Origin: Octopus vulgaris
Lineage: Eukaryota
Direction: 5' to 3'
DNA: 64,000 nucleotides
Assembly: GCA_951406725.2 (NCBI GenBank)
Contig: OX597819.1
Location: 22,692,001 to 22,756,000, forward strand
In this document: positions 12,636-42,904 of the stretch, piece by piece
How positions within the stretch are numbered: the first letter of the stretch is position 1
Layout of the letters: every line of letters begins with the position of its first letter
Notes under the pieces: generated by a model
Seen by the model: only the letters and a program-made list of their open reading frames with translations
Database searches by the model: none
Told to the model about the DNA's origin: nothing
Program-made: the position numbers and the translations under genes

Positions 12636-12714
12636 ATGCATTTATCTCCGATACTCTTGTTTCCAGTTGTTGCCCTGACCGTGACGATTATTTTGGATAA
12701 TACTAACACAGATA
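12636..12714 (+). CDS. First coding exon (signal peptide) of a small secreted Cys-rich protein: MHLSPILLFPVVALTVTIILDNTNTD
   Basis: tttttcttacag|ATG acceptor, hydrophobic N-terminus, A|gtaagt phase-1 donor; 79 nt; joins in frame to 15621. Confidence 0.8.
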
Positions 12715-13513
12715 GTAAGTTTTCATATTCATAAATTCCTGCACGAGTATGAGGCTCTGAGATCCAAACCCCCTCTCCTCTCGACACCGTCATTATTTCA
12801 ATTTTCCAAATAATGTCGTAAATACATTTCTAAAATCTCTTTTGGAGCTCACTATCACACTTGTGTAAATTTCCATAAGTCTGAAGTCGTTTTAGAGGGT
12901 AATCTGATTTCGATCTTAAAAGGAAGTCTGTAAAATGGATTTTTAGGCCGATTCAGTAGAACTACATCGGTGTGTTGTGTGAACAGTTATTATTTCTTTA
13001 TAAGATGTAACTGCACACCAAAAGGTAATTTATGGGACACAAGAAAACATTTACAAGTAAGTCAGATAACATAACGTTGAAGGTTTCTGAAATTTAAAGA
13101 AGGACATTGTTTTACATATGCACATTGTCCTTTCTGCTGTCTTTTAGAGCTGTTACACTCACTTATAGTAATATATATCTACATATAGGCACACACTACA
13201 AATTTGTCTCGTTTTCCTTTATGTCCATAAATATCTATTATAAGTCATAAGATGATATTGAACTTTGAATTCCTAATTCATAGTCCATTAAACATATACA
13301 TACATACACACACACACATATATATACATACATATATACATTCATACATGCATACCTACATATATAAGTATGTGTATATATATATATATATATATATATA
13401 CATATGTATACACACACACATACATATATATGTGTATATATATATATACTTACATATGTATGTATATATATATATATATATGCATATATATATATGTATA
13501 TATATATGTATAT

Positions 13514-14620
13514 TGTTACGCCGCCACTCAGGCCGAAGGCCTTCCGATTCCACCACGGGGCCTAAGTCGCGACGATGACGCTCAGTAAACCGGAAATCCT
13601 CCACGGCAAGGAGGGAAGGCGGCGAACGCAGCCAGGAACCAACACAACAATAAAAGAAAGGAGACATACAGCGGAAGTTGCGTAATTCAGCAATTTTCTT
13701 TTTAACAAAACCAAGGCATTCCAAAACAAAGGTTGACAAATCATGTACAGAGTTCGAAGAACAAATCATTTGCATTTAAACATAATACAGATTTCGAAAA
13801 ACAAATCATTTAACATTTGACACAATGCAGTTCGATTATTCAAGACAAATCATTTTACATTTAACACAAGGTTCACAATCAACAGTCTCTTAGAGCTCCA
13901 CTTTCCTCTTTTTTTTTAACACGACAGTTCTCAAAAAGTTCCTTCTGCTTTTCTTTTAAAAACATTTCCAAGTTCTTTTTTTCTTCCTTTTCTTTTCTTT
14001 TAAAAACAGTCAACAACACGCTCTTTTATCTTTTCAACGGTTACGCCAGAGCCTCTCTCTTTTTTTCATTTCAACAACACATCGTCGCTTCTTTTTTTTT
14101 TCGAAGAACATTTACATTTAAAAATTTAGAATTCAAAACATGCAGAAAAACATTACCAGAACATTTGTTTCTTAAATTCGCGTCCGCAACAATTTTAACT
14201 TCACAAACTCCCACTACAACAACTTGTCTGGCCGCTCGTTGTCATCTTTCCCACTGCCCCGCCATCTCCAACTACACCTGTATGTCTCTGGCCGTCATCA
14301 TCTCTAACTCACTCCCTGGTCCCGGTCTCCGCTCACACTGACCGTCTGTCTTTCTCTCAGTGACTGACTCTCGCCAACCGAACGCTTTAACTTAATGCTA
14401 TCCGTATATATAACGTCGTCCCAGTATTTTTATTCTTTTTAACTTTCCGTTACCGTGTGGGGTCATAGAACAGTTTCAAGGCCATTAATAATCGTGCTCT
14501 TTGACAGGACAAAGGAAATACTATTGTCCTAAACAACTGGAGCGCCGGTTCAATTCCAACTAATGGAACAAAGGGCATAATGTTTTTTTGTTCGTTTACA
14601 TTTTCCTTGCGTCTGTAACA
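13514..14620. mobile_element. Probable solo LTR (~1.1 kb) inserted in (TA)n
   Basis: Termini TGTTAC...GTAACA with ATAT on both sides (consistent with a 4-bp TSD, though inside a TA tract); non-coding. Confidence 0.65.
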
Positions 14621-14686
14621 ATATAATATATATATATATATATATATATATATATATATATATATATATATATATATATATATATA

Positions 14687-15395
14687 CTAAATATCAGGGT
14701 AAGAAAATATTAAAAAAATTTTTTTACTACCAGTAGTCTAGCATGTAGAAAAATTAGTCATATAAATACAGTGTACATTTAAATACATAAGAGGTAACCA
14801 TCATAGGATACCTAGCACGCTAGAAGGAATGGCCAAAATCCAAACCACTCTTAGGGATAAATTTCGAATGGAATGAAAATAAAATCATTTACCATCTATC
14901 TGCTGGACCATGGTTTCTAGCACTATATTAGCAAATAAAATAATTTGATAGGCGGAGCATTCATCAACGGGTACGCCAAGATTAAACATAAAAATACGAG
15001 GCAATCTAGCATTTGCCCCGTGCTTATAAATCATAATTTTTCAAACCAACCGCGCAAGCGAATTTTTTATCAGCAGCAAATAAATAATGCCGGCGTTTCT
15101 TCGAAAAATTTCCAAAAATTATCAATTATTACTAAATATCACGGTGCCTCGTATTTATATGTTTAATATAAATGGCATACTGTTGATAAAGGCTCCGCCT
15201 AGCAAATTATCGTATTTGCTAATATAGAGCTACAAACCATGGCCCAAGAGATAGATGGTAAATGTTTTTATTTTTCTTTCCCTTCGAAATTTATCCCTAA
15301 GAGTGGTTTGGATTTTGGTTATTCCGTCTAACGTGCTAGGTATCCTATAATGGTTACTTCTTGTGTTTAAATGTACACTGTATTCATATGAATAA
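14687..15395. mobile_element. Penelope-like head-to-head element with ~245-bp imperfect inverted arms (14758-15003 / 15145-15391), in (TA)n
   Basis: Arms are reverse complements and each has a decayed HHR (14903-14970 -, 15180-15247 +) with stem III ccatgg. Relatives at 36925-37160 and 48507-48677. Confidence 0.7.
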
Positions 15396-15620
15396 TATAC
15401 ATACATACATACATATATATATATATATATATATATATATATATATATATATATATATATATATATATATGTATCTATATGTATACGTATGCATGTATGT
15501 ATGTGTGTGCGAGTACATATATATATATATATAATGTATATATATGGTCGTCTCGAAGATTTTTAATATCCATTAACCATGCAAATCATTATCTATATGT
15601 TGTGTTTTTATTGTTTGCAG

Positions 15621-39911: not shown

Positions 39912-41430
39912 CGTTGTCGAGCGGTTACTGTTTACATCTCGTTCAGAGATAGGGGAGGGCGCAAGAAGCAGTTGTATTAGTTTAACGCTCGAAAAGAATG
40001 GAAAAGTCTTTGACGTTTCGAGCCTACGTTCTGCGACAAAAAGGGATGAGAGATAAAAATGGAGAATGAAAAAACGGAGAGACATTCCATCGTCTACGAC
40101 TACCTGTTCTGCAGTTGATCTCATCAACAGAACGGACCGCTTGTGAAATTAACATGCAAAATACTGAGCACTCCATGGGCACGCGTACCCATAACATAGT
40201 CGTAAGAGAGATACGACGTGACACACAGAATGTGGCAAGGCTGGCCCTTTGGATTACAGCTACAACTCATTTTGTGTGTTTGCATCTATCTTCAAAAAGT
40301 ACCGTTGCCAAAACAGTTGGCCGTGTCAAATATTTAGCGTTCACAAAGCTGCGCTCAATCATGTAACTCTCTCTCCTCAGAAACAGGTGTCAACTACCGA
40401 GGTAACCATTTGAACATAATTCGATATATCATACGTCTTCCATCATTTACTGTAATGTTTTGTGACAAGAGTCCAGTTGTTCCGTAAGTTCTCTGTTACA
40501 GTGAATTATTTCAACTACACCTTGACGATTCGTCTTAACAGTCGCAGTTCACAGACAACATTTGCGTGGTTTGTTTTCAATGCTGGTGTCTCTTCTTTAA
40601 ACGACTTCATCCTATTCCCTTTTGGTTAGAAACCAGTTCTCTTTGGATTGAGAAATTCGAAAAGTAAAGCCAGTGAAGCAATTGCAGATATATGTGGGAT
40701 GTGGGGTATGTGTGTGCGTGCGTGTGTGTGTACAAACGCGTGAGTATTTGTCTTTATATTGTGTATGACACATAGAAATCTATTTCAATTTAGAACTGCT
40801 GTATATAACAGATATATGTATCTGTATATATACATAGATACATATATACGCGCACACAGACACACACACACGCACAAATATCTATGTGTATATATATATA
40901 TATATATATATATATATATATATACATACATACAGAGGAAGAGGAAGGGAGGGTGAGAGAGAGCTCCCATATATCTTATTAAAAGTTACACCTGTTAAAC
41001 CACCCAAATTTATTAAGACATCCTTTTATTTCCATTTCCATATTCATACCTACTCCATTCACATATTTTCACAGTTATATGCAAATAATTTACTGATATT
41101 TTAAAGTATAGAGAATTATGTAATTATGTTTTGCGCCTGTGTATGTTGTATGCAGTCATGCGTGTATCGCACAACAGCTTTAAACGGGATGAAATATAAA
41201 CACGATGTATCAGTCATATAGAATGCCATGAAATACCCTATTTTCGCATCCCTGTTACTTTATATCCGCAACGATCAGCACGCATTTCCAAGTATATAAT
41301 ATGATGAAACAAAAGTAATATATATATATATATATATATATATATATATATATATATATATATATATATATATACTATGTGCATATTTACCATTAAACAG
41401 CAACGCCGCCGTCATTGTATATAGTATCTA

Positions 41431-41998
41431 TTGGGTTGTCCGGAAAGTTCGTGCCGATTTATAGCAGCTTCCTTTCGACTTATTTTAGAACATGGTTGAG
41501 TCCAGGAAATAGGATTTGACTACACCTCCATTTAGAGCACAGTTTAAGCTATCTTTTCGTGGAAGAAGGTTTATGTTCCTTTAACCTGTCTTAATTCTGT
41601 AACCATTTAAAACGGAAGATAAGAAAGTTCATTTTCGACACTTGATGCTTTGGGAACCAGATAAAAATTGCTGCAGCTCGGCTAGGATGTGTTAACCACC
41701 CACCCTCCATATTCACTCGGTATTGCTCCTTCGGATTTCCACTTATTCAGGTCTCTGCAGAATAGTCTTAATGGTAAAAATTTCAATTCTTTGGATGACG
41801 TAAAAAGATACCTTGATGAATTCTTTGCCATGAAACCACCTCAATTCTGGGAAGAGGGTATTTTCAAGTTAGAGGAAAGATGGAGACGCATTGTGCAACA
41901 AAATGGTTCATATTTGGTTGATTAAAAATGTAATGGCAAGTATTTATTAACCTTTTTCTTTCCTTTAAAAATCGGCACGAATTTTCCGGACAACCCAA
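41431..41998 (+). mobile_element. Internally deleted mariner with both TIRs and TA TSD
   Basis: TA|TTGGGTTGTCCGGAAAGTTCGTGCCGATTT ... AAATCGGCACGAATTTTCCGGACAACCCAA|TA; HPPYSLGIAPSDFHLF..GIFKLEERW..NGSY. Confidence 0.92.
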
Positions 41999-42196
41999 TA
42001 TTTCACTGCCCCAGAGAAATAATCACCTCAAATTTCTATGTTACCATATTTACACGCAGAGAATTTACACAAATTTCAAGCTATTCCTTTAATCATTATA
42101 TACTGATAAAATTAGGTGGGGTCTTGAAACGTTATAGCCAATATGTTTGTTTTCCATTATGGCATTCGTTAAAAACGGAATTATTTTATTTTATAG

Positions 42197-42264
42197 TTTG
42201 CACAGTGGATCACATACTGCTGGACATACTGAAGTTTTACTATCCGGCATTGAACTATTGTTAA
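42197..42264 (+). CDS. Terminal coding exon, copy B: (V)CTVDHILLDILKFYYPALNYC*
   Basis: ttattttattttatag| acceptor, phase 1, TAA at 42262-42264, AATAAA at 42303-42308. Confidence 0.8.
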
Positions 42265-42904
42265 AACAAAATCGTTATTGATTTTCCTTGTAATTTATCG
42301 TCAATAAAAGTAAATACCAGTGTTTCATAATGTAGTGTTATTTGTAAATAGAACTCTATCTAGACAACAAATATTGAGGTATTCCCAATGTACCTTATAA
42401 TAATCTCAACTACTCGTATTTGTTTGCGTGTTCCTTAAATTTTGAGGAAACTGTCCCCGATAGAGAAAAAAACCTTTCAAATAACATACATTTAAAAATA
42501 AGTCCTTTTGCTTAAAATTACTACCTATACAATTCTATAATCTAGTTCATTCAAAATAGAAGAAGTAGTTCCTCATACCATCACAGAGTAAGAAATTCTC
42601 TCCAATAGTGAAAGACATATGTTCAGATGAAAACAGATACGTATTTATGAAAAGTGAGAGACGCTAACAAACATACAAGTGAATCGCATAGAAAAGAGAT
42701 AATTTCAATCATTCACACAGACACACACATATACACGTACATGCACATATACACATACGAACACATGAAATTCTCAAACACACACATAAGACGAAAGCAT
42801 ACATAAGTGCCCCAGGGGTGAAGGGTCGATGTATGTAATGCATGCGCTGCATGCGTTACTATTTTTTTCGCTACAAATAATTTTTGCTTCATATTAAGTT
42901 AATT

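Follow-up and report, generated by a model that had tools for sequence, protein, structure and literature searches.

The window analysed here, a stretch of 64,000 nucleotides (nt) of Octopus vulgaris DNA without N (contig OX597819.1, positions 22,692,001 to 22,756,000 of the forward strand), contains a gene for a small, secreted, cysteine-rich protein in which one set of 5' exons, exons 1 and 2, is followed by two tandem copies of the terminal exon pair, 3A-4A and 3B-4B. From the sequence we consider it reasonably probable that the two pairs are alternative terminal cassettes chosen by splicing and polyadenylation, in which case the outcome would be two secreted proteins of 133 residues with a common first module and different second modules. 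This gene architecture is known from humans and flies and is not a new mechanism.

One set of 5' exons and two terminal cassettes

All six exons (Table 1) are preceded by AG acceptors, and the four internal ones end in GT donors (GTAAGT three times and GTATGT once, the latter in 3A where 3B has GTAAGT), with every junction in phase 1. The joins 1-2-3A-4A and 1-2-3B-4B are each 402 nt long and encode 133 amino acids (aa) with 12 cysteines, ending in TAA. The initial annotation had described these exons, their phase, the two products and their stops and AATAAA signals, and all of them were re-derived from the sequence. It had also pointed to the hybrids 3A-4B and 3A-3B-4B. The 3A-4B and 3B-4A joins are open at 133 aa each, as is 3A-3B-4B at 177 aa and 16 cysteines, but as isoforms the hybrids are no more than an in-frame possibility. 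The gene model is real and not a product of chance, since a public Octopus bimaculoides protein shares its length, its cysteine spacing and its exon-sized blocks. The secreted, cysteine-rich nature proposed for the product was upheld by its 12 cysteines and by the N-terminus encoded by exon 1, where hydropathy peaks at 2.8 over 11 residues, compared with 2.3 to 3.5 in nine family proteins. An AG abuts the ATG and there is a GTAAGT at 12524, which makes a further exon of the 5' untranslated region (UTR) likely upstream of that position. The poly(A) signals of both cassettes are hexamers read in the sequence; at the site aligned to the AATAAA of B, cassette A has AATAAG.

Table 1. Positions of the gene, its duplicated blocks and candidate exons in the window
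Feature	Position	Strand	Basis
Candidate 5' UTR intron, 112 nt (GTAAGT...AG abutting the ATG)	12524..12635	+	sequence, inferred
Coding exon 1, signal-peptide-like, phase-1 donor, common to both products	12636..12714	+	sequence, hydropathy
Exon 2, 123 nt, phase 1-1, first fibronectin type I (FnI)-like module, 6 Cys, common to both products	15621..15743	+	
Exon 3A, 132 nt, phase 1-1, second module, 4 Cys	24169..24300	+	
Exon 4A, last coding exon, 2 Cys and TAA	28893..28960	+	
AATAAA of cassette A, 121 nt past the stop	29081..29086	+	
Exon 3B, 132 nt, phase 1-1, 4 Cys	37433..37564	+	
Exon 4B, last coding exon, 2 Cys and TAA	42197..42264	+	
AATAAA of cassette B, 39 nt past the stop	42303..42308	+	
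Duplicated block A, proximal cassette and flanks	about 24035..29420	+	self-alignment, nhmmer
Duplicated block B, distal cassette and flanks; orthologous to the 3' end annotated in O. bimaculoides	about 37307..42730	+	
Small terminal exon candidate, last exon of O. bimaculoides isoform X3	38389..38414	+	6/7 residues, AG and stop intact
Cassette exon candidate, extra exon of O. bimaculoides isoform X1	40502..40568	+	18/21 residues

The duplicated unit extends beyond the exons on both sides and does not include a second 5' end. Self-alignment and nhmmer over 154 kb around the gene showed no further copy of exon 1 or exon 2, whether in the stretch separating the cassettes or outside it, and neither did a family hidden Markov model (HMM) run over six frames near the gene. 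The HMM recovered exons 2 and 3 of every neighbouring paralog and is therefore sensitive enough. Genome searches were made in an assembly of 227 contigs (G000), in which the gene lies on contig C6, and DNA searches with exons 1 and 2 across all of these contigs found a single copy of each. The absence of a second signal exon or exon 2 that had been reported for 29 to 37 kb thus holds there and assembly-wide. Raw DNA contigs contain block B in three large runs from two studies (word shares of 0.62, 0.52 and 0.46), and the same runs contain block A, with exon 4A covered in 3/3 and exon 3A fully in run X1 and partly in run X3. The runs were judged DNA-like from their intron cover, and one of them may be the assembly's own source. 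With three runs from two studies supporting both blocks, the duplication is unlikely to be an assembly artefact.

Several candidate copies around the cassettes were rejected. An apparent remnant of a 5' end belonging to B (15184-15519 against 36946-37284, 67%) proved to be a dispersed repeat, for which there are 2137 candidates and, at other places, copies at 82-90%. Near 57909, what looks like a third copy of exon 4 is a chance match without an acceptor or a matching stop, and 18 listed cysteine-rich phase-1 candidates between the cassettes are of microsatellite or low-complexity origin, none fitting the family profile. A short dispersed repeat occupies 14760-15400 of the window, in intron 1, where it forms an inverted pair, and 36946-37217, where an older copy precedes exon 3B.

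Selection on the cassettes and the O. bimaculoides ortholog

The exons of A and B are identical at 156/200 nt (22% different) and their non-coding flanks at 950 of 1153 aligned sites (82.4%). The flanks have 30 frameshift-length indels, which corresponds to 5.2 expected in 200 nt, and the exons have none. In a rough simulation, the probability that a neutral copy keeps its frame, cysteines, splice sites and stop since the duplication was p 0.004 for A and 0.005 for B; for B to stay intact since the split from O. bimaculoides, if neutral, it was p ~0.08. Both cassettes have thus been under past selection, which fits recent silencing of one copy too. The cysteines are kept at 6/6 positions and the other residues at 33/59, the latter changing at the pace of non-coding DNA. 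The ratio of nonsynonymous to synonymous substitution (dN/dS) between A and B is 1.31 (bootstrap 0.70-3.0), which does not establish positive selection.

Out of 391 candidates, a search with an exon-2 profile retained a single protein, isoform X2 of O. bimaculoides LOC128248178 (XP_052825023.1). This ortholog has the same 133 aa, 12 cysteines, cysteine spacing and exon-sized blocks as the gene described here, but only one cassette, of the B type, is annotated there. Identity to it is 14/26 residues for exon 1, 29/40 for exon 2, 32/43 for 3A and 35/43 for 3B, and 10/21 for 4A and 13/21 for 4B. RefSeq isoform models are built on RNA reads. The annotated exon-2 junction of the ortholog probably leads to a B-type cassette, and because its annotated 3' end corresponds to B and not to A, the conserved tail is probably B, and A has less support. 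The initial annotation had placed its doubt on B; the ortholog turns that doubt towards A.

The other isoforms of the ortholog, X1 and X3, diverge after exon 3 and use small non-duplicated exons, whose counterparts survive in intron 3B here (Table 1). A homolog of the 38389-38414 exon was not found in intron 3A, and in A's homolog of the 40502-40568 exon an insertion interrupts the sequence and 12 nt are deleted. A 1.5-kb tandem duplication in the window (24332-27305, 96% identical, beginning 32 nt past the 3A donor), which is either recent or an assembly effect, contains a repeat that splits this homolog. The shifted-frame tail of X1 matches B at 23/32 residues and A at 15/32. Taken together, near-neutral pieces match the ortholog at 30/37 residues where about 24 would be expected at A-B-level divergence (p 0.024), and the duplication therefore probably predates the split from O. 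bimaculoides. The protein searches did not recover the spliced product of the window itself, but the word search among them was incomplete and missed five known members.

Cassette choice and competing explanations

Under alternative cassette choice, exon 2 would splice to 3A with cleavage after 4A, at A's own poly(A) signal; alternatively, A would be skipped, exon 2 would splice to 3B and the transcript would end at the poly(A) signal of B. The likely switch would be a race between splicing and cleavage at A and the skipping of A to reach B, and both the 15743>24169 and the 15743>37433 junctions would be used in this species. In favour of this, among 23 exon-2 places that are followed within 30 kb downstream by an exon 3, 22 have one such exon and only this gene has two. 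The choice between last exons that the initial annotation had proposed remains the best reading, with selection on both cassettes and the ortholog on its side.

The layout of two interchangeable 3' exon pairs also stands, as one of an already known kind. The accessible passages of PMC8373072 describe human GNAO1 and 77 C-terminal substitutions derived from tandem exon duplication, ascribe such C-terminal swaps to alternative poly(A) use and present GNAO1 as exchanging its last two coding exons for a tandem-duplicated pair, as the octopus gene would. The octopus gene shares with GNAO1 homologous terminal exons in tandem on the same strand and in the same phase, one common upstream exon set in the assembly, and a stop and poly(A) hexamer for each copy; as to junctions, the ortholog shows the B type only. 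The GNAO1 isoforms are annotated transcripts, whereas those of the octopus gene are both proposed; its product, moreover, is secreted, and dN/dS between its cassettes is near 1. Drosophila PGRP-LC, CG42235 and Pip likewise join common 5' exons to one of several duplicated 3' cassettes with the variable recognition domain, and the portion of PMC6191721 available to us states that RNA pairing rules some of these variable cassettes and may be rarer in 3' clusters. PGRP-LC differs in being a membrane receptor with three cassettes and docking-site/selector pairing (same source, same portion). Our scan for such pairing was limited to perfect stems and the first 1 kb of intron 2, and within it nothing rose above the null: the best competing stems scored 28 (A) and 30 (B), compared with maxima of 25-32 in 10 random stretches each.

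Several observations weigh against alternative cassette choice. Neither isoform is backed by a spliced read or transcript in this species, and to reach B, the AATAAA-bearing cassette A has to be skipped across an intron of 21.7 kb, where intron 2 of the family has a median of ~4.5 kb and a maximum of 12.8 kb. An A-type isoform was not found in the protein collection (1 candidate), and all three annotated isoforms of the ortholog use a B-type exon 3. Exons 1-2 differ from the ortholog at 23/66 residues, A at 22/64 and B at 16/64; exons 1-2 are thus as distant as A and more distant than B, which is also expected from whole-gene duplication, the contrasts of exons 1-2 with B and with A being non-significant (Fisher p 0.25 and 1.0). 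The intactness of both cassettes is compatible with recent silencing of one copy, the neutral figures coming from a rough simulation, and the fold match described below is modest (Z 5.8, root-mean-square deviation [rmsd] 5.5 across 83 residues, no Foldseek E better than 0.007), with no Pfam match. The sequencing runs are not evidence on expression in either direction: among the 21 runs listed there was no RNA holder of exon 4B and its 3' flank, the 18 guessed-RNA runs had next to none of the words of that stretch, and in one of these 18, run X4, exons 3A and 4A of block A were uncovered and the one contig (159 nt at 29245-29403, depth 3.6) is possibly DNA.

The whole gene may instead have been duplicated in tandem, copy B having recently lost exons 1 and 2 in this lineage, so that the gene makes the A product only, B is a young orphan and O. 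bimaculoides kept gene B whole. We regard this as unlikely. It would account for the equal distance of exons 1-2 and A from the ortholog, it is the usual mode of the family with its one exon 3 at 22/23 exon-2 places, and A's own AATAAA lies upstream of B. It requires two losses, however, since no A-type gene is annotated in O. bimaculoides, and the 72% identity of exon 2 to the ortholog falls inside the range of 53-90% shown by another seven pairs of presumed orthologs with O. bimaculoides. Moreover, B would have stayed intact since the split at the p of ~0.08 given above if neutral throughout, and the sole apparent intron-1 remnant before 3B is the dispersed repeat. That B is the real, conserved 3' end and that A, long useful, is now skipped or rare, leaving mainly one protein, strikes us as distinctly unlikely. 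The ortholog isoforms are all of the B type, A has lost the conserved AATAAA position, its donor is GTATGT rather than GTAAGT, and it has 13 unique changes to the 7 of B. This last difference is not significant (p 0.26), though, and A has kept its frame, cysteines, splice sites and stop (the neutral p of 0.004) and has another AATAAA at +121. An intact proximal cassette is usually easy to use, which also counts against its being vestigial.

It is quite improbable that the duplication serves to lengthen the protein, the main product being 1-2-3A-3B-4B with three modules, or 3A-4B, with 4A skipped. The joins are in frame with an even cysteine count, and O. bimaculoides LOC106869796 (216 aa, 22 cysteines) is annotated with two exon-2/exon-3 pairs in series, but exon 4A is the acceptor nearest to 3A and is intact with its own stop and AATAAA, which indicates that it was selected as a last exon. 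Finally, B could be a plain tandem paralog, the assembly lacking its promoter and its exons 1 and 2. The interval from 29.4 to 37.3 kb is microsatellite-rich and no contig among the raw contigs listed spans it; against this, the window is without N, there is no second exon 1 or 2 in the 227 contigs and the protein collection has one close exon-2 relative only, making such an omission very improbable.

Predicted fold and the octopus family

The fold was predicted for the ortholog protein with a 42-row alignment and consists of beta-strands and a C-terminal helix (mean predicted local distance difference test [pLDDT] 85.8, predicted template modelling score [pTM] 0.69); a single-sequence fold (pLDDT 35) was discarded. 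In Foldseek, FnI pairs occupied 7 of the first 8 rows, the first six at E 0.007-0.075 and none at E <=0.001. A wide structure search placed 8-9FnI first (Z 5.8, rmsd 5.5, 83 aligned), below a firm threshold, followed by MSMB3 (Z 4.7), with CirpT1 at Z 3.3, while language-model leads of 0.75-0.82 (<0.9) went to VWC, FnI, pacifastin and PSP94 clusters. By sequence, no fn1 or VWC match was found among the 42 aligned members, Pfam named no family for the ortholog or other family proteins, and a PDB sequence search gave no match (best E 0.67). Of the checks that the initial annotation had suggested, the profile searches gave no named family and the structure searches lead modestly to FnI pairs. Each match is modest and all agree on a predicted fold of two FnI-like modules. 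Single-module alignments cover roughly residues 28-68 or 65-112, so that exons 2 and 3 would each approximate one module. FnI pairs (3ejh, 2cg6), chicken MSMB3 (6rwc), the tick complement inhibitor CirpT1 (6rpt) and VWC are likewise small disulfide-rich beta modules in tandem, and these systems lead the structure searches at Z 5.8, 4.4, 4.7 and 3.3; the octopus protein differs from them in its extra cysteines and C-terminal helix and has an identity to them of ~11-13%, with scores in the tool's inconclusive range. FnI modules have a 1-3, 2-4 disulfide pattern and bind partners by beta-strand addition. On this model, we infer a secreted two-module binder in which the second module and tail are exchanged. 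The proteins would likely be extracellular binders that grip a partner protein along beta-sheet edges, and by analogy to FnI pairs, the second module would tune specificity.

Contig C6 carries at least 24 exon-2-like and at least 31 exon-3-like places of the family, in clusters at 22.15-22.77, 114.9-115.0 and 123.3-123.95 Mb. All 14 paralogous exon-2 loci examined (14/14) are 120-126 nt long with AG and GTAAGT, and 13/16 exon-3 loci are 132-135 nt and phase 1-1, one being a differently sized subfamily and two chance matches. No partner has been found yet for seven exon-3 places and one exon-2 place; the seven, at C6:22.30-22.47 Mb, are either further shared-exon cases or search misses. Genome matches on other contigs (L007, L046) were rejected for want of an acceptor and the cysteine pattern. 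A search of 1.84 billion representatives gave 13 matches, 11 of them Octopus proteins and two (P0012, P0013) unrelated by sequence and Pfam content, so database relatives come from Octopus records only (LOC128248081, LOC128248170, LOC106872966, LOC106872050 and others). The window is flanked on both sides by opposite-strand family members with their own exons 2 and 3 (C6:22659329-22660118 and 22764453-22767056, both on the minus strand). At C6:114977930-114995424 (L019, L042, L028, L045), two exon-2/exon-3 pairs lie in series and resemble LOC106869796, which is annotated as one four-module protein and may be an internal duplication or a read-through of two genes. The accession XP_052825023 is nearly consecutive with those of genes (P0007, P0009, P0010, P0024) best matched here at 123.5-123.8 Mb; that accession neighbours of the ortholog (P0003) map 100 Mb away hints at a rearrangement that split one cluster.

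No paper was found under twelve family identifiers and no title on the family in topic searches, subscription papers and bioRxiv supplements lying outside their coverage. A supplementary file of PMC7693380 and another of PMC10138644 contained neither the identifiers nor five short peptides, which is not evidence, and the words 'cysteine', 'tandem' and 'fibronectin' are absent from the accessible passages of PMC7656900.

Elsewhere in the window, minus-strand open stretches at 18542-19756 (405 aa) and 7154-7627 (158 aa) resemble what we take to be decayed retrotransposon reverse-transcriptase pieces. Positions 588-1723 contain a 575-nt tandem duplication with 98% identity, and at 47285-48384 lies a perfect inverted repeat of 462 nt, its arms separated by 176 nt, possibly an assembly fold-back or a young palindrome.

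What gives the locus its value is its family: three clusters on a single chromosome-scale contig contain at least 31 exon-3-like places, and there is no Pfam match. A venom, salivary or defence role had been guessed for the product, a guess with nothing behind it except that the family has expanded and evolves fast. Secreted binders with these two traits are a typical feature of immunity, reproduction and venom. It is a speculative idea, in which we place little confidence, that the family is a diversifying recognition system (immune, reproductive or prey-directed) of at least 30 Octopus-restricted secreted FnI-like two-module proteins, varying by gene copy and by module swapping (3A-4A, 3B-4B, 3A-4B and 3A-3B-4B here and a four-module form at another locus) that phase 1-1 exons would enable. 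The locus itself is a natural protein pair in which module 1 is common and module 2 different, and once a ligand is found, it could serve to map the module that sets the target.

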